DNA of 64,000 bases, from contig PRDI01000058.1 in assembly GCA_003345595.1 (NCBI GenBank), positions 1 to 64,000 on the forward strand, in the 5' to 3' direction. Below, piece by piece: positions 30,142 to 38,425 of the stretch. Source of the stretch: Candidatus Thorarchaeota archaeon. Lineage in GTDB: Archaea > Asgardarchaeota > Thorarchaeia > Thorarchaeales > Thorarchaeaceae. Both the position numbers and the translations under genes were made by a program. How positions within the stretch are numbered: the stretch's first letter is position 1; each line of letters opens with the position of its first letter. Under the pieces are notes generated by a model, which saw only the letters and a program-made list of their open reading frames with translations, made no database searches and was not told the origin of the DNA.

Positions 30142-30594
30142 TGCTGAAGAGGCTGGCTCGCCTTTGCGCCCCACGCGGTAGTTGTTGGAACAAACCATGC
30201 TCACTGCTTCGTTGTTCACAGCCTCTACCTCATGGTGGCATAATGGTTTGGTGCTGACACCATTTAAATACTACACTGTTGACGCAATAAACCATTGATG
30301 ATGGGACCTTCGCACACAGGTGCACATCCAACGGACTAGGATTGACGAACTGAAGGTGAGATACCTGCTGAGTCCTTGCGTCGGGAATACTTAACGATAA
30401 AGCGACACCGTAGCCTTTCACAAGAATTTCATCATTGGTACCAATAAAAAGCGCAGCCACATCATGGGGTCACGTGTTGAGGTCGCTTCATGTTACCGGT
30501 CACGCAGGCAGGGGTGTAGGTGTGCGACAGTCAAAGATATTACGAAGCTGATTCAGAACCTGCAGTATCAACTAACGACAGGAGACAGGTCAGG

Positions 30595-31476
30595 ATGGAT
30601 ATCAAGAAGATTGCCGTGCTTGGCGCAGGCCAGATGGGCAACGGTATAGCTCATGTCTGTGCTCAGTCAGGCTATGAAGTCAAGATGCGAGATATAGAGC
30701 AACAGTTCCTCGACAAGGGCCTTGCAACGATAAAGGGAAACCTAGACCGCATGCTGAAGAAGAGCAAGATTACTCAGGTGGACGCGGATGCAACATTGCG
30801 TCGCATAAAGTGCGTTCTCGACCTTAAGGAGGCCGTGAAGGACGCTGATCTGGTCATTGAGGCGATTCCCGAAATAGTCAAGCTGAAGTTGGACACTTGG
30901 AAGGACGTGGACGCTGCCGCCCCTGCCAGCGCCATATTGGCGTCGAACACTTCGAGCATCAGTATCACCCAAATGGCGGCTGTAACAAAGCGGCCTCAGA
31001 AGTTCATAGGCATGCACTTCTTCAACCCAGTGCCTGTCATGGGACTTGTTGAAATCATTAAAGGGCAAGCCACCGACGACGCAACTGTCGATGTGATAAA
31101 GGCTGTCGCGACTAAGGTCGGCAAGCAGACAGTCGTTGTTAAGGAAGCGCCAGGGTTCGCAGTCAATCGATTGCTGGTGCCCGCTTTGAATGAGGCTGTC
31201 TTTGCGATTCAGGAAGGCATCACGACAGTTGAAGACATGGACCTAGCCATCAAGCTCGGGTTGAACTGGCCAATGGGTCCGCTGACACTTCTTGACTTCG
31301 TGGGTCTAGACACGGCATTGTACATCGCCGATTATTTCGTGGACGAGTTCAAGGACAGCAAGTACAGGGCACCTGCCTTGTTGCGCAAGATGGTGCGTGC
31401 AGGATGGCTGGGCAGGAAGTCCGGAAGGGGCTTCTATGACTACTCAACCAATCCTCCCAAGCCGGGTAGGTTCTAA
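30595..31476 (+). CDS. hbd: 3-hydroxyacyl(butyryl)-CoA dehydrogenase
   Basis: GAGQMGNG, EAIPE, ASNTSS, GMHFFNPV, PMGPL and LGRKSGRGFY motifs. Confidence 0.95.
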   Translation: MDIKKIAVLGAGQMGNGIAHVCAQSGYEVKMRDIEQQFLDKGLATIKGNLDRMLKKSKITQVDADATLRRIKCVLDLKEAVKDADLVIEAIPEIVKLKLDTWKDVDAAAPASAILASNTSSISITQMAAVTKRPQKFIGMHFFNPVPVMGLVEIIKGQATDDATVDVIKAVATKVGKQTVVVKEAPGFAVNRLLVPALNEAVFAIQEGITTVEDMDLAIKLGLNWPMGPLTLLDFVGLDTALYIADYFVDEFKDSKYRAPALLRKMVRAGWLGRKSGRGFYDYSTNPPKPGRF

Positions 31477-32101: not shown

Positions 32102-35100
32102 TCATTTCGTGAGCTCTTCTTCTCTGAGCTTCTTCTTGAAGAGTTTCATTGCCACAGTCAGAGGCAGCTCATCTCTGAATTCTACCCATTTTGGCACGGC
32201 ATATGGCTTCACTCTCTCCTTCAGGTATTCGATGATATCCTGCTCTGAAACTTTACCTCTATATTCAGGTTTCAGCTGGACAAAAGCCTTCACCCTTTCA
32301 CTTCCAGGTCTTTCAGAATCAGGAACCCCTATCACACCTGCAACATCGACGGCTTCGTGTGTGTGAAGGATGTCATCAATGACCCTACTGTACACCTTGT
32401 TACCCGAAACATTGATCATGTCTTTTAGCCGGTCTACTATTCTGAAGTAGCCGTCACTATCCATCTCGACAATATCGCCCATAGGCAACCATCCGCCCTC
32501 TCTTAGTCCACTTCCAGGAGTTGGGAAGTACCCCTTCATGACCTGCGGTCCACGGATCCAGATTTCTCCTCGCTCGTTAAGCGGAAGCTCTTTTCCAGTT
32601 TCGGGATCGACGATTTTGACCTCTGTATCAGGTATGGGAATGCCGATGCCCCTCTTTGTTTCGGTCATGAAACCAGTGACCTTCGAGAGCGCTGACACGT
32701 TGATTGTTACGATTGCTGATGACTCTGTTGCGCCATAGCCTTCGCCCATGGGCACTCCCGTCTTCTTCTCAAACTCCGCAGCAAGATCGGCAGGGAGTGC
32801 CGCTGCACCTGAGTAATAGAATATCTGTCCCTTCTTCAGGTCCATCTTGCTCAGCATTGTATAGTGAGCTGGGACTGCGAATACAACGAAAGGACGTTGC
32901 TTGTTGATTATATCTGCAATCCTCGAGATGTCACGCGGGTCAACCAGGAATATCTTCATACCCCATGACACGCATGCATGCACGGCCCAATGGCCGTACG
33001 CGTGGAAGATGGGCACACATATCAGACCTGCGCTCTTTCCGATGATTCCCTCCTTCAGAGGGTCCATCATCCATTGAATTGACTGTATGACGGCACTTGT
33101 CAGATTGTAGTGTGTCAACAAGGTCCCTTTTGGAAGCCCTGTGGTGCCTCCCGTGAAGGGCAGCAGGGCGATATCCTCCTTCGGGTAGATTTCGACAACA
33201 CCTTCATGCGGCTCGTGCTGTTCTATCAAATCATTGAGAAGGAAGTAGTTGTCATCATCAATCTGCTCTGTGTCAGGATATTCATAGTCTGGGAATACCC
33301 TTGTAGGGGTGTAGATAACGATTCTCACGCTCGTTTCGGGTTTGACTCGATTGATTCTTTCAAGACGTCTGGATGAGCATACCACGATCTCAGCTCTACT
33401 CTCTTTGAGTTCATACAGCAAATCGTCGTCCTTGTGCATAATGCTTAGAGGTACATGAATCGCTCCAATCTTCATTGCTGCATAGTCAGCTATTATGAAT
33501 TCAGGACATGATGGAAGTACAGTGGCAATTGCGTCCCCCTTCTTCACACCAAGGGCTACGAAAGCTGATGCAAGCTTGTCAACCTTCATTTTCAGCTCAT
33601 GATATGTCAAATGCTCATCCAAGTACTCACATGCTTCAATATCAGGGAAATTCGTTGCAGAGTCCTCTAGAAACTTGTAGACATTTATCTCAGGATACGG
33701 AGCCATCGAATGCTTGAGTTTGAAAGGACCAATTTGGTAGCCACTCAACCACGGCTTGTCACCAAAGATTTCTGCCGATGTTCTAGATACTGCTGATGCC
33801 ATCTCCTTTTCAGAAGTAGCCATCTGTTTTGTTTGTGCCCCCGTAGTTCCTCTCCCAAGATCCCCATATTCAGGGATCGAATCAGCAACCCATGCAAGAT
33901 CAAGTTCCTTTAGTTTTTCTCTCGAGGGTCTTCCTTGATGATCCCATCCGCGATACTTGTAGTATGCATCTAGGAGAACATCCAGTTTCACAACATGCCC
34001 CTTCGCTGGCCCTTCGGGCATTGGATCCTCTAGTAGTCGCGGAGGTAGACTGTCATCTCTTCGTCCAAACCCCTCCCTCAAAATGTATGCCCTCTCCAGG
34101 TTATAGATTCTCTCACCTGTCTTGCGAAAGTCATCTGCAGAGAACTCATAGCCCATCAGTGTGGAAATCAGTTTCGCCCAGTCTTCGGCAGTGAGCACCA
34201 TCCCCATGAACTTGCAGCCACCAATGGCGTCAAAGATGCCGAATGCATCCTCGAAGTTCTTGACGACTAATGCTATCTCTGGGATTTCCATTAGTGGATC
34301 GCCCACATCCGCATTCTCAACGATCATGAAAGGCATGGAGAGAAAAGCAGGTCCCTCAATATACGCTGTTATGTGATCTCCGCCTCGATTCGCAACAGCA
34401 TAGGCAAGTCCCGTTATCTTGGCCGCTCTGCTGTCATAACCCGGGAGCTCTAGTCCCTTCACATGCATCGCGAATCTCTCAGACCCATTACCTAGTTTCT
34501 CAGCCATCCTCATGGTCCCTTCAGCAAGGAGATTCCCTATTCCCTCACGTTTTCCAATCTTGTGAACAATGTCAACGATAAGTTGCGCATTTCCCCAGGA
34601 GAAGTCCATGCCACCAATGTCGTCGTCTTTCAGGATGCCGCGTTGTCTGCATTCCATGGCAAAGCCAACGCTATTGCCCGCAGAGATTGTGTCAATGCCA
34701 TACTCATTGCACAGGAAGTGCGCGAGGGTGATGGCTTCTAGGCTGTCCACACCGCACATAGTCCCAAATGAGCTAATAGTTTCGTATTCCGGGCCCTCTC
34801 CCTTGCTCTTGAAAGGTCCCTCCTTGATTTCGGCAATCCTCCCGCAATGGATGGGACAAGCAAAGCAGGGCTTTCGTCTTACTAGGATGCTATCATTGAT
34901 TGCCTGCCCGTTGATTTTTTCTGCGTTCTCAAAAACGCCGGTCTGCCAGTTTCTGGTCGGGATGCCTCCCTTGACATTGACCAGGTCAACCATTGTAGCT
35001 GTGCCATAAACCTCTAGGGTCATCTTCAGAAGGCTTTGATTCACCCAGTCGAACCTTTGCTTTGCCTCCTGTCTGTATGCGTCTGGGTCTGCAATGGCGA

Positions 35101-35737
35101 TTTCCAGAGTCCCCTTTGATGCTATTGCCTTCAGATTCTTTGAGCCCATGACCGCGCCAACGCCGCACCGTCCCGCTGCGCGACCCCAGTTCTCCTCATC
35201 GCAGTCGTTCATGATTGCAGCGTACTTTACCAGATTCTCCCCTGCGATACCTATGCAAGCGACATTGAATTTGGGTCCGTGCCTCTCTCTGAGGATTCTA
35301 GTGGTTTCGGAGGTGTTCTTTCCCCATATCTTCCCTGCATCGAACAGCTCCGCCTTTCCATCTTCAGTGAGGAGGTAGACCGGACTTGGCGCTCTTCCTT
35401 CGAATATTGCACCATCAAAGCCGGAGCGTTTGAAATCTCTCCCCCAGAATCCTGCGGAATTTGCCTGGCCCCATCCATTCGTGAGGGGTGACTTTGTTAC
35501 CACACTGTATCGTCCTGTGCTGGGCGAACTGGTGCCTGTAAGAGGGCCGGTCATGAAGATGAGCTTGTTCTCAGGACCAAGGGGGTCAATGCCTTTTTCA
35601 GTTTCCTCAAGTAGGATCTTGGTAGCTAGTCCGGCACCACCGAGGTATTTTCGTAAGGTTTCTTCATCAGGGAATTCCTCCGTTATTGTAGATGTAGTCA
35701 GATTGATGCGCAGGATCTTTCCCATGTAGCCATACAT
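32102..35737 (-). CDS. Fusion protein: aldehyde:ferredoxin oxidoreductase (W/Mo AOR family) plus long-chain acyl-CoA synthetase
   Basis: AOR part (aa ~1-620): YLGGAGL, KSPLT, AAGRCGVGAVMGSKNLKAI, CFACPIHC, EYET, GIDTIS, DAIGGCKF. Ligase part (aa ~660-1211): FTGGTTGLPKG, EGYGATE, GPQVMKGY, GD, DRLKDMI and A10 Lys. Confidence 0.93.
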   Translation of the reverse strand: MYGYMGKILRINLTTSTITEEFPDEETLRKYLGGAGLATKILLEETEKGIDPLGPENKLIFMTGPLTGTSSPSTGRYSVVTKSPLTNGWGQANSAGFWGRDFKRSGFDGAIFEGRAPSPVYLLTEDGKAELFDAGKIWGKNTSETTRILRERHGPKFNVACIGIAGENLVKYAAIMNDCDEENWGRAAGRCGVGAVMGSKNLKAIASKGTLEIAIADPDAYRQEAKQRFDWVNQSLLKMTLEVYGTATMVDLVNVKGGIPTRNWQTGVFENAEKINGQAINDSILVRRKPCFACPIHCGRIAEIKEGPFKSKGEGPEYETISSFGTMCGVDSLEAITLAHFLCNEYGIDTISAGNSVGFAMECRQRGILKDDDIGGMDFSWGNAQLIVDIVHKIGKREGIGNLLAEGTMRMAEKLGNGSERFAMHVKGLELPGYDSRAAKITGLAYAVANRGGDHITAYIEGPAFLSMPFMIVENADVGDPLMEIPEIALVVKNFEDAFGIFDAIGGCKFMGMVLTAEDWAKLISTLMGYEFSADDFRKTGERIYNLERAYILREGFGRRDDSLPPRLLEDPMPEGPAKGHVVKLDVLLDAYYKYRGWDHQGRPSREKLKELDLAWVADSIPEYGDLGRGTTGAQTKQMATSEKEMASAVSRTSAEIFGDKPWLSGYQIGPFKLKHSMAPYPEINVYKFLEDSATNFPDIEACEYLDEHLTYHELKMKVDKLASAFVALGVKKGDAIATVLPSCPEFIIADYAAMKIGAIHVPLSIMHKDDDLLYELKESRAEIVVCSSRRLERINRVKPETSVRIVIYTPTRVFPDYEYPDTEQIDDDNYFLLNDLIEQHEPHEGVVEIYPKEDIALLPFTGGTTGLPKGTLLTHYNLTSAVIQSIQWMMDPLKEGIIGKSAGLICVPIFHAYGHWAVHACVSWGMKIFLVDPRDISRIADIINKQRPFVVFAVPAHYTMLSKMDLKKGQIFYYSGAAALPADLAAEFEKKTGVPMGEGYGATESSAIVTINVSALSKVTGFMTETKRGIGIPIPDTEVKIVDPETGKELPLNERGEIWIRGPQVMKGYFPTPGSGLREGGWLPMGDIVEMDSDGYFRIVDRLKDMINVSGNKVYSRVIDDILHTHEAVDVAGVIGVPDSERPGSERVKAFVQLKPEYRGKVSEQDIIEYLKERVKPYAVPKWVEFRDELPLTVAMKLFKKKLREEELTK

Positions 35738-35822: not shown

Positions 35823-36107
35823 ATGAAGGTGAAAGTGAAATTCTTCGCGCATCTCAGTGAGCTCACAGGTAAGAAACCAGTATTCGAGGTCGATGTTGAG
35901 GAGGGCGCCACCGTTTCCATGCTCTTGGACAGTCTACTCGTCGACCGGAGGATCAGGGATGCCCTGCTGGACGAGAACCAAGAGATCAGGTCCAATATAA
36001 CTGTCCTCAAGAATGGCAGAGAGATAAAACTCCTGGCGGGAATGGAAACCAAGCTGAGTCATGGTGACGAGCTAGCTGTGTTTCCCATGCTTGTCGGAGG
36101 TCGATAA
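35823..36107 (+). CDS. MoaD/ThiS/SAMP ubiquitin-like protein (C-terminus ...VGGR)
   Basis: MKVKVKFFAHLSELTG...VLKNGREI...LSHGDELAVFPMLVGGR, a beta-grasp pattern. Confidence 0.9.
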   Translation: MKVKVKFFAHLSELTGKKPVFEVDVEEGATVSMLLDSLLVDRRIRDALLDENQEIRSNITVLKNGREIKLLAGMETKLSHGDELAVFPMLVGGR

Positions 36108-36222
36108 GTGGTGCATCGAATACCCTAGACCCCTTCAAGCTCAATTTATCAGTAGGACATTCCTGTTACAAGAGCATTCAATCGAATTACGATGACCAGT
36201 GCTATTCGAAGGATTGATCACT

Positions 36223-36672
36223 ATGCCGAGATTCATGTCAGCTGAATGGCTGAATCTATACAAGAATGCGCTCAACAGCAACGATGCCTATGCAAGGGCT
36301 GCTTCGTGGTGGACTGGCGACTTCATTTTCGTTGTCAGGGCAAGCGGCAAGTTGGACCATGATATTTTTGCTTTCATCGGGTTGACTCACGGTAAGTGCA
36401 CCGGTGTGAAGCCAATAAAGGGAGAAGACGAATACCAAGTTGTGAAACCTGGTGAGGGTGCGAGCAGTAAGGACAAGGTTGCCGTAGAGTATGTCTATGA
36501 GGCCAAGTATGATGCTTGGCTGAGAATCCTGAGAGGCGAGTTGGATCCTGTCCGCGGGCTTCTCAGCGGCCAAGCAAGAATCGTTGGAGATATGGCCAAG
36601 ATTCTCAAGGCTACGGACGCTGCGAAGGAGCTAGTACGAACATCCACCCTGATCGACACGGAATTCTACTAA
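36223..36672 (+). CDS. SCP2 sterol/lipid-binding domain protein
   Basis: FMSAEW...LNSNDAYARAASWWTGDF...WLRILRGELDPVRGLLSGQARIVGDM is the archaeal SCP2 pattern. Confidence 0.88.
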   Translation: MPRFMSAEWLNLYKNALNSNDAYARAASWWTGDFIFVVRASGKLDHDIFAFIGLTHGKCTGVKPIKGEDEYQVVKPGEGASSKDKVAVEYVYEAKYDAWLRILRGELDPVRGLLSGQARIVGDMAKILKATDAAKELVRTSTLIDTEFY

Positions 36673-36692: not shown

Positions 36693-37103
36693 ATGGATGA
36701 AGCAGCGCGGGAAATCCTCTTCCATACATTCAAGGCCGTAATAGAAGATGTCATTGCTGACAAGCGGAAGAATCCCAAGAACACCACGACTCTTGACGAA
36801 TATCGAGCCAGGATAAACATAGGTCTGCATGTGGAAGAGGAATTCATATTGTGGGTGAATCTTGTTGCTGAAGGCGGCAAGTATGTCGTCAACAAAGGAA
36901 AGCTTGATGACTACGATCTACAACTCATATCAGACCCCGAGGATATGATGTACTTCACTAACAGGAAATACTCAACGCTGAAGATGATGTTCACAAAGAA
37001 CAGATTCGGAGAGAGAAGGCTGCTTTTCAGTGGAGGAACGTCTGGCAGAAACTACGGGAAACTGTTGAAGCTCCCCAAGGTGCTAGTCTTGGATGGCAAA
37101 TAG
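36693..37103 (+). CDS. SCP2-like protein (divergent)
   Basis: LVAEGGKYVVNKGKLDDYDLQLISDPEDMMYF...STLKMMF...LLKL fits the SCP2 fold pattern. Confidence 0.65.
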   Translation: MDEAAREILFHTFKAVIEDVIADKRKNPKNTTTLDEYRARINIGLHVEEEFILWVNLVAEGGKYVVNKGKLDDYDLQLISDPEDMMYFTNRKYSTLKMMFTKNRFGERRLLFSGGTSGRNYGKLLKLPKVLVLDGK

Positions 37104-37305: not shown

Positions 37306-37545
37306 ATGGGAAGGTGGGGGACCTGTGGGCACATGCACAATGCTCACGTCAGGAACTGTTTACCTGCCGACGTGTCTGTCAGACTCCTGAAGAAGATGGG
37401 AGCGGACATCACGTTCGTCTGCGGATCAGACACTCATGTTACTCTTCTCCTGACTGTAACAGAGGCCGCTGGTGTTAGTCACAGAGAACTCTATGTAGAG
37501 TACCACGAGCACTACCTGGAGATCGTAGCCAGTTTCCCAATCTTA
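37306..37545 (+). pseudogene. metG: Degenerate N-terminal fragment of methionyl-tRNA synthetase
   Basis: GHMHNAHVRNCLPADVSVRLLKKMGADITFVCGSDTHV...GVSHRELYVEYHE matches the MetRS HIGH...PAD..R....G....F(V)CGSD.HG region with eroded motifs; only about 80 codons are present. Confidence 0.7.
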
Positions 37546-37582
37546 ATAGCAGTGTTGCATCATGTCCGGTCATGTGGTGCAG

Positions 37583-38425
37583 ATGAGGTACGAAGAGAGC
37601 AGCTACACAGGATACGATGGCATGCAGATGTTCATGTCGGTATGGACTCCCGACGACGAACGGCCCCGTGCTCTCATGGTAGCTATTCACGGGCTTGGAA
37701 GTCATGGGTCTGCTCTGACTAACGTCGGCGTCTATCTCAGTGAGCGGGGCATTGCAGTGTTCGCCCCTGACATGAGGGGCTTTGGTCACTATTCGGGACT
37801 GAAGGGGCACGTGATGAACTTCGATGAATACATCGAGGACATCGATAGCGTGGTGACTCAGGTCAAGATGATGCACCCGTCCAAGCTGACCTTCCTGTTT
37901 GGCCACTCGCTGGGGGGTCTTGAAGCGATAAGATATGTCACTACGTATCCCGGCGATGTCGATGGTCTGATTCTATCCTGCCCTGCGGTTTCTGAACATG
38001 TCGAGATCGGGAAGGCAACCAGAGTGGCGGGCTCATTCCTTTCACTACTAAACATTAAGCGATACTTCGGCTGGCCTACCCAGTTCCAGTACGCCTCACA
38101 TGACCCAGACGTCGTTCAGGAGCATGAGAACGACGTGCTTAGGTTTGACAAGGTGACACCCCGACTTGGAATGTCTGCACTGAAAGCTACCCGCAAAGCG
38201 TTCGAGTCTGCATCCGGAATAGTGCTCCCAGTCCTTGTGCAGCAGGCGGGTGACGATGTCTTCGTTATACCTGAGAAGACCAAGTTGTTCTTCGACAGCA
38301 TTGGTGGATGTGACAAGAGCTGGAAATTGTATGAGGGTCTCTATCACGAACTTCACAATGAAAATGCGAGGGAGCAGGTACTTGGCGACATGTACGCATG
38401 GCTTGAGAAGCGCCTGACGGGATAG
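37583..38425 (+). CDS. Alpha/beta hydrolase, lysophospholipase/monoacylglyceride lipase family
   Basis: HGLGSH, DMRGFGHY, GHSLGG (nucleophile), GDD and YHELHNE motifs. Confidence 0.92.
   Translation: MRYEESSYTGYDGMQMFMSVWTPDDERPRALMVAIHGLGSHGSALTNVGVYLSERGIAVFAPDMRGFGHYSGLKGHVMNFDEYIEDIDSVVTQVKMMHPSKLTFLFGHSLGGLEAIRYVTTYPGDVDGLILSCPAVSEHVEIGKATRVAGSFLSLLNIKRYFGWPTQFQYASHDPDVVQEHENDVLRFDKVTPRLGMSALKATRKAFESASGIVLPVLVQQAGDDVFVIPEKTKLFFDSIGGCDKSWKLYEGLYHELHNENAREQVLGDMYAWLEKRLTG

Follow-up and report, generated by a model that had tools for sequence, protein, structure and literature searches.

A single-chain fusion of aldehyde:ferredoxin oxidoreductase and acyl-CoA ligase in Thorarchaeota probably marks an unstudied route from hydrophobic aldehydes to acyl-CoA

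The fused gene and its two halves

This study investigated a gene that encodes an aldehyde:ferredoxin oxidoreductase (AOR) and an acyl-CoA ligase in one polypeptide. The gene lies in a 64,000-nt stretch of DNA from Candidatus Thorarchaeota archaeon (assembly GCA_003345595.1, contig PRDI01000058.1, positions 1-64,000), hereafter referred to as the window. An initial annotation had described a single unbroken open reading frame (ORF) of 1211 aa, which was recovered in full. Its strand was corrected to minus; the interval is open on that strand only, and its plus-strand translation is full of stops. The start codon is correct, as residue 1 of the product pairs with residue 1 of Pyrococcus furiosus AOR (PDB 1aor). 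Searches against Pfam identified AFOR_N (residues 6-210, E 5e-77) and AFOR_C (237-614, E 4e-138) in the AOR half, and AMP-binding (690-1071, E 2e-83) and AMP-binding_C (1120-1195, E 2e-13) in the ligase half, all far above cut-off. The coordinates of the gene, its parts, and the neighboring genes are presented in Table 1.

Table 1. Features of the fusion locus, in window coordinates
Feature	Coordinates	Strand	Remarks
Fused AOR-acyl-CoA ligase gene	32102..35737	-	1211 aa plus stop
AOR half	33872..35737	-	Residues 1-622; AFOR_N + AFOR_C; AOR-proper type by sequence
Linker	33758..33871	-	Residues 623-660; 38 aa; predicted disordered tether
Acyl-CoA ligase half	32102..33757	-	Residues 661-1211; ANL superfamily, FadD-like
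MoaD/SAMP1-family small protein	35823..36107	+	Divergent from the fusion; Pfam ThiS, E 1e-10; NCBIfam SAMP1 77 bits and moaD_arch 63 bits, both above cut-off
SCP2-like protein	36199..36672	+	Pfam SCP2; real start probably ATG at 36223
136-aa protein (U136)	36693..37103	+	SCP2 fold predicted from a structure model
Alpha/beta hydrolase (lipase-like)	37562-38425
3-Hydroxyacyl-CoA dehydrogenase	30520-31476

The pterin-binding motif pair of the AOR family has the form DxxGL(C/D)x. In the AOR half, the second motif is intact (Asp503...Cys508), and the first reads NEYGIDT, with Asn344 replacing Asp338 of 1aor; this asparagine was found in all fused proteins and in 29 of 33 stand-alone relatives. The four [4Fe-4S] ligands of 1aor (Cys288, 291, 295, and 494) correspond to Cys291, 294, 298, and 508, which were retained in all 36 full-length fused proteins described below. 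The active-site residues Tyr312, Glu313, and His448 of 1aor correspond to Tyr318, Glu319, and His455; the glutamate and the histidine were conserved in 36/36 fused proteins and the tyrosine in 35/36. Residues 1-615 aligned end to end with residues 1-602 of 1aor, the best PDB match at 550 bits, compared with 400 bits for FOR (1b25), 273 bits for WOR5, and 229 bits for BamB (4z3w), whose alignment was confined to residues 2-433. Judged by sequence, the AOR half is a member of the AOR-proper subfamily. It shares the domains, the four cluster cysteines, and the Tyr/Glu/His equivalents of 1aor and other AOR-proper enzymes (9mqx and 9g7j), whereas it differs from 1aor at Asn344, in having Thr457 instead of Lys450, and in carrying a C-terminal acyl-CoA ligase. 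One account of the AOR-proper clade gives free aldehydes and acids as the substrates of its members (PMC9295118).

The best PDB match of the ligase half was FadD-1 of Archaeoglobus fulgidus (3g7s; full-length alignment, 208 bits). The core motifs were located at residues 862-871 (A3), 1001-1005 (A5, YGATE), Asp1088 (A7), Asp1102/Arg1103/Lys1105 (A8), and Lys1198 (A10). Apart from minor substitutions in A3 and A5, they were kept in 36/36 fused proteins, and they were essentially invariant in 25 stand-alone ligases as well. The ligase half thus has all ANL core motifs and the FadD-like N-terminal segment in common with FadD-1 and FadD-type AMP-forming synthetases; unlike these enzymes, it is part of a subfamily whose genes nearly always come directly after an AOR gene. 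The NCBIfam models for long-chain-fatty-acid-CoA ligases all scored below cut-off for this half, the best being PRK06187 (358 bits against a cut-off of 476). The motifs named in the initial annotation, namely CFACPIHC (Cys291/294/298), the distal Cys508, the P-loop (A3), YGATE, and the A10 lysine, were all confirmed. Both halves look catalytically intact.

The linker had been estimated at approximately 40 aa, and both its length (38 aa) and its position agreed with that estimate. In an AlphaFold2 single-chain model built from a 94-row alignment (mean predicted local distance difference test score [pLDDT] 88.4), both enzymes were confidently folded and the AOR half was mostly above 90, with linker residues 626-659 below 50. 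Across 32 Thorarchaeota clusters, mean column identity was 0.375 in the linker versus 0.92 in the AOR half and 0.87 in the ligase half. Its length stayed within 34-40 aa in these clusters and was 42 aa in Hodarchaeales, and the retention of this range despite free sequence drift suggests that the linker is a flexible tether for which length is important. The C-termini of stand-alone AORs coincide exactly with the start of the linker, and stand-alone ligases begin approximately 6-8 residues ahead of the conserved KPW that follows it.

Occurrence and two independent origins of the fusion

A search for proteins of similar length yielded 47 clusters with both AFOR and AMP-binding domains, counting that of the query. 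Thirty-six of them were full length (1204-1226 aa) and shared the four-domain architecture. The fused clusters stem from NCBI, JGI, ENA, and Logan assemblies and are named Thorarchaeota at 78-91% identity or Hodarchaeota at 62-63%. We also scanned 301 sampled Asgard genomes in six frames with a junction-spanning query; 76 contained a match, and translation revealed an uninterrupted junction in 23, comprising 21 from the window's own family and 2 from a second family (f22). The 36 full-length homologous clusters and the 23 genomes establish that the fusion is real. The initial annotation had held that two separate genes in close relatives would speak against it, and such relatives do occur at approximately 70% identity; they reveal the origin of the fusion rather than an artefact. 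Although some of these gene pairs are in frame with one TGA between them, an assembly chimera or a missed stop codon can barely be entertained, as uninterrupted junctions recur in genomes and clusters from four assembly sources and the fused clade is monophyletic with its own linker of conserved length.

A HMMER search of 1.84 billion representative sequences returned no fused representative and no distant fused form. Because clustering at 50% appears to have placed the fused proteins under stand-alone representatives, this search is silent on how widely the architecture occurs. The window's genome (2.73 Mb, 83% complete) contained 12 AOR-family matches (11 long and 1 fragment) and 6 ANL genes. 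The other AOR and ANL genes were at most 42% and 38% identical to the respective halves, and by sequence the fusion is the only orthologue in this genome. The 12 matches form an unusually large paralogue set, which includes a second member on the window's contig (C58:79958-80938). A genome of the same family (G203) carried two fused genes (C142:1185-2243 and C40:25035-26081), which were 80% and 68% identical to the window's junction region. Two single-contig genomes had shortened frames of 1003 and 982 aa that covered only part of one half (G242:C1:29380-30423 and G236:C1:156330-156908, respectively); these may be long-read indel errors or decaying copies, and the G242 locus was without SCP2 neighbors.

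Stand-alone AORs (616-625 aa, 69-77% identical to the AOR half) and stand-alone ligases (558-570 aa, 64-74% identical to the ligase half) were abundant in Thor-, Prometheo(Loki)-, Hod-, Hermod-, Odin-, and Heimdallarchaeota. In each of the first four genomic contexts, the ligase lay 34-99 nt downstream of the AOR on the same strand, and the same pairing was found in 20 further split loci from Asgard genomes. Two Hodarchaeales-family loci, L072 (G211:C14) and L073 (G139:C4), had approximately 1 kb inserted between the two genes, and in four genomes (G062, G025, G102, and G283) the genes were on different contigs.

We then compared the trees of both halves. The Thorarchaeota fusions formed one clade beside split Thorarchaeota and Promethearchaeota genes, and the Hodarchaeales fusions formed a separate clade nested among split relatives. 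In the AOR tree, the split relative was an AOR of Hodarchaeales; in the ligase tree, the relatives were ligases named Promethearchaeota. An approximately unbiased (AU) test, run on a quick tree, rejected the grouping of all fusions together (delta log-likelihood 141, p-AU 8e-55). The linkers of the two groups were unrelated in sequence, that of Hodarchaeales retaining the old ligase methionine, and every fused locus followed the gene order of its own lineage. On the basis of these findings, the genes fused twice independently, once in Thorarchaeota and once in Hodarchaeales. Read-through or recoding of the in-frame TGA present between the AOR and ligase genes of some Thorarchaeota was considered and rejected, as two stops occur in several relatives and the ligase has a normal start downstream.

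The AOR-ligase pair and its gene neighbors

The ligase alignment was also searched against one genome per GTDB species. The best 80 of 389 relatives were kept, and 79 loci were usable. In 75 of the 79 loci, an AOR gene on the ligase strand ended at most 400 nt upstream, and none of these loci was fused. The hosts were Dehalococcoidia and other Chloroflexota, Desulfobacterota, Bathyarchaeia, Bacteroidales, Spirochaetota, Acidobacteriota, Actinomycetota, and Asgard archaea. Since the AOR precedes the ligase in nearly all of these loci, the fused gene is a widespread two- or three-gene unit in single-chain form. The SCP2 model trained on Asgard sequences matched 40 of the 79 loci, and iron-containing alcohol dehydrogenase (Fe-ADH) matched 11, including 7/7 from Bathyarchaeia. 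On one metagenome contig (L075), the SCP2, AOR, and ligase unit preceded genes for a molybdopterin oxidoreductase (Molybdop_Fe4S4/Molybdopterin) and a 4Fe-4S ferredoxin-like protein (L075:8075-10648).

The gene neighborhoods of 48 Asgard loci were mapped with hidden Markov models built from the window's neighbors. In fused Thorarchaeota loci, the genes for the 136-aa protein, the SCP2-like protein, and the MoaD-like protein were divergent from the fusion; in split Thorarchaeota loci, the 136-aa protein, SCP2-like, AOR, and ligase genes were all on one strand. Hodarchaeales loci, fused and split, had Fe-ADH and SCP2-like genes divergent from the AOR and ligase, followed by the MoaD-like gene. 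The Promethearchaeota layout consisted of DUF1512 and then AOR, ligase, SCP2-like, HAD phosphatase, and phosphoenolpyruvate-utilizing enzyme genes. One Promethearchaeota locus (L014:1454-4911) had two thiolase-like and two DUF35 (zf-ChsH2/OB) genes directly upstream of an AOR-ligase-MoaD unit, on the same strand, and a second AOR gene after the unit.

An SCP2-like gene was present in every Asgard locus with enough flank. Pfam SCP2 was matched by 7/7 aligned members of this family (best E 3e-7, 31 bits against a cut-off of 21.3), with the window's own copy below the cut-off at 16.8 bits; the Thorarchaeota and Hodarchaeales copies were 38% identical (E 1e-26). The 136-aa protein occurred in all Thorarchaeota loci and in some Promethearchaeota loci. 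It had no match in Pfam or NCBIfam, and an hhalign comparison with the SCP2-like family gave a probability of 0.3%. Its AlphaFold2 model (pLDDT 89, predicted template modeling score [pTM] 0.81) was submitted to Foldseek, and nearly all of the top PDB matches were SCP2 structures (E 1e-4, TM 0.5-0.68). The protein is thus predicted to have an SCP2 fold. Among its fold matches are the SCP-2L domain of MFE-2 (1ikt), UbiJ (6h6n), and the alkylsulfatase SdsA1 (2cfu), in which an SCP2-fold carrier is likewise tied to enzymes with hydrophobic substrates; unlike these, the putative carriers at the present loci are separate small proteins. A complex prediction for the AOR half and the SCP2-like neighbor scored 0.01, which is evidence neither way.

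The MoaD-like gene adjoined the fusion or the pair in most Thorarchaeota and Hodarchaeales loci, and its MoaD/SAMP1-family product is likely a factor for pterin-cofactor maturation; MoaD-like genes are known from the aor operon of Aromatoleum (PMC6365974). Fe-ADH was adjacent in 8/8 Hodarchaeales loci. A lipid-scavenging module that would include the lipase-like hydrolase and the 3-hydroxyacyl-CoA dehydrogenase of the window was rejected, as neither gene is conserved beside the fusion in related loci. A 138-aa ORF at window positions 37306-37722 (plus strand), which overlaps the start of the hydrolase ORF, matched only the first approximately 84 positions of the class I Met-tRNA synthetase model (E 5e-11) and may be a gene remnant.

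Proposed function and competing explanations

In the literature, we found neither the fusion nor the AOR-ligase pair nor its SCP2 companions described, and, in agreement with the initial annotation, we found no characterized enzyme of this architecture. Asgard genome papers mention AORs only generically, and the fused proteins lie in public databases under generic names. Several known systems offer a comparison. CoA-acylating aldehyde dehydrogenases (PduP, EutE, and the N-terminal domain of AdhE) convert aldehyde to acyl-CoA at one NAD+-dependent site through a thiohemiacetal, with no ATP and no free acid. The fusion would achieve the same net conversion with two unrelated enzymes, likely with a low-potential ferredoxin acceptor, and at the expense of ATP. 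Carboxylic acid reductases (CARs) of the nonribosomal peptide synthetase type resemble it in joining an ANL adenylation domain to a redox domain that acts on the acid/aldehyde couple. They possess carrier and NADPH reductase domains, whereas Pfam found four domains in the fusion and neither PP-binding nor NAD_binding_4; the redox partner in the fusion is a pterin enzyme, and the direction is likely the opposite. The AorABC system of Aromatoleum aromaticum combines a tungsten AOR with the MoaD-like maturation genes aorD and aorE, similar to the MoaD-like gene found here, but AorABC uses NAD+ through separate Fe-S and FAD subunits (PMC6365974); at the fusion loci, adjacent genes for such subunits are absent and a ligase is attached. 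For MK-D1, a preprint noted a single SCP-2 homologue without further study (PMC12139934).

Given what is established for the two families and the linkage found here, we propose, with a probability of approximately 0.7, that the fusion is a bifunctional enzyme in which two tethered catalysts sequentially convert aldehyde to acid and acid to acyl-CoA while ferredoxin is reduced. The aldehyde would be oxidized to the free carboxylic acid at the pterin site of the AOR half, probably a tungsten site, and two electrons would pass through the [4Fe-4S] cluster to ferredoxin. The FadD-like ligase would then adenylate the acid with ATP and transfer it to CoA, yielding AMP and PPi. The disordered tether of approximately 38 residues would hold the active sites close in a 1:1 ratio and might couple them kinetically. 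One or two SCP2-fold proteins probably carry a substrate or product of low solubility, the MoaD/SAMP1-like protein probably acts in cofactor maturation, and the adjacent Fe-ADH of Hodarchaeales and Bathyarchaeia probably produces the aldehyde from an alcohol. That the two reactions are consecutive, as the initial annotation had it, is very probable in view of the AOR-then-ligase order across many phyla and the two independent fusions. The same annotation specified fatty aldehydes; the conversion of aldehyde to acyl-CoA is retained in our proposal, whereas "fatty" is only suggested by the SCP2-fold neighbors and the FadD-like ligase. Because genes for these two enzymes lie side by side in many anaerobic bacteria and archaea, usually next to one for a small SCP2-fold protein, the fusion probably marks an unstudied route by which hydrophobic aldehydes become acyl-CoA.

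Several findings weigh against this proposal. The route spends two ATP equivalents that a CoA-acylating aldehyde dehydrogenase would save. A plausible advantage of the route is that the very low potential of the acid/aldehyde couple enables syntrophic, hydrogen-releasing anaerobes to make reduced ferredoxin, something beyond the reach of a CoA-acylating NAD-dependent dehydrogenase. Two observations speak against an explicitly fatty substrate: no curated equivalog is matched by the ligase, and the neighboring Fe-ADHs resemble short-chain types (the AdhE alcohol dehydrogenase domain and lactaldehyde reductase). The 3-hydroxyacyl-CoA dehydrogenase is the beta-oxidation neighbor, and with its lack of conservation the earlier notion of a pull into beta-oxidation loses support. 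No tungstate-binding WtpA was found in the window's own genome, which is uninformative at 83% completeness. Physical channeling also found no support: the fusion model had a pTM of 0.62 and no confident packing between the domains, and, with a linker that is disordered and variable, neither the tunnel envisaged in the initial annotation nor a fixed interface is supported.

The same linker properties bear on a competing explanation, in which the pathway is the same but no direct hand-over occurs; the fusion would then fix only stoichiometry and co-expression, and the acid would equilibrate with the cytoplasm or ride on SCP2 proteins. This explanation accords with the disordered, variable linker, with the absence of predicted docking, and with the fact that most lineages manage with two separate genes. 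Nevertheless, the fusion arose twice, and the length of the linker was held while its sequence drifted, which suggests that distance matters; we consider the explanation unlikely.

An ATP-driven reduction of carboxylates, resembling that of CARs, would reverse the proposed direction. The acid would first be activated by the ligase, as acyl-AMP or acyl-CoA; the AOR half would then reduce the activated acyl group to the aldehyde with reduced ferredoxin, and the neighboring alcohol dehydrogenase would yield the alcohol. Activation would lift the thermodynamic barrier, and the Fe-ADH neighbors could operate in either direction. However, the active site of the AOR half is that of a classical AOR, and in sequence this half lies far nearer to AOR proper than to BamB, which is the one family member known to act on a CoA ester. 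In addition, the AOR gene comes first and the ligase second in 75 of the 79 loci, and the ligase has the A8 and A10 features of complete CoA ligases. We know of no AOR that reduces an acyl-adenylate or a thioester, and this too counts against the reductive direction, which we regard as doubtful. Even more doubtful is its boldest form, in which the fusion and the widespread pair together constitute a ferredoxin-dependent, ATP-coupled carboxylic acid reductase whose pterin enzyme reduces an activated acyl group, a chemistry unknown for AORs. If it were true, anaerobes would gain a valve, reversible and gated by ATP, that connects acids with aldehydes or alcohols.

A ligase-first order, as in benzoate-CoA ligase followed by BamB, in which the AOR half would act on a CoA ester (for example, by ring reduction or oxidation of a distal aldehyde), is very improbable: BamB is an AOR-family enzyme that acts on benzoyl-CoA and is detectably related, but its partial alignment contrasts with the end-to-end match to 1aor, and no BamC-H-like partners appear in the loci.

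If the proposed oxidation of aldehydes to acyl-CoA is correct, the hosts would generate low-potential reduced ferredoxin in the course of oxidizing alcohols or aldehydes to acyl-CoA, which would be useful to hydrogen-releasing syntrophs at the price of ATP. The fusion serves as a natural "Rosetta stone" that links a tungsten-type AOR subfamily to a dedicated subfamily of FadD-like ligases and to putative SCP2-fold carriers. This set is encoded together in sediment anaerobes such as Asgard archaea, Bathyarchaeia, Dehalococcoidia, and Desulfobacterota, and genome papers have so far annotated it only generically. The single-chain form is the simplest construct for a laboratory test of the route and may be of use in biocatalysis. 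The presence of SCP2 carriers with acyl-CoA enzymes in the closest archaeal relatives of eukaryotes is also of evolutionary interest.

Other AOR fusions were observed in the same protein searches. Many proteins of approximately 830 aa (P0052-P0103), from Methanomethylicaceae, Nezhaarchaeales, Thermoprotei, and Hodarchaeales, join a complete AOR-family enzyme (41-48% identical to the present one) to a domain resembling 3-hexulose-6-phosphate synthase or orotidine monophosphate decarboxylase, and this combination could be involved in formaldehyde handling. A further candidate fusion protein of 992 aa (P0322) carries a full AOR (residues 4-591) and approximately 400 additional residues.

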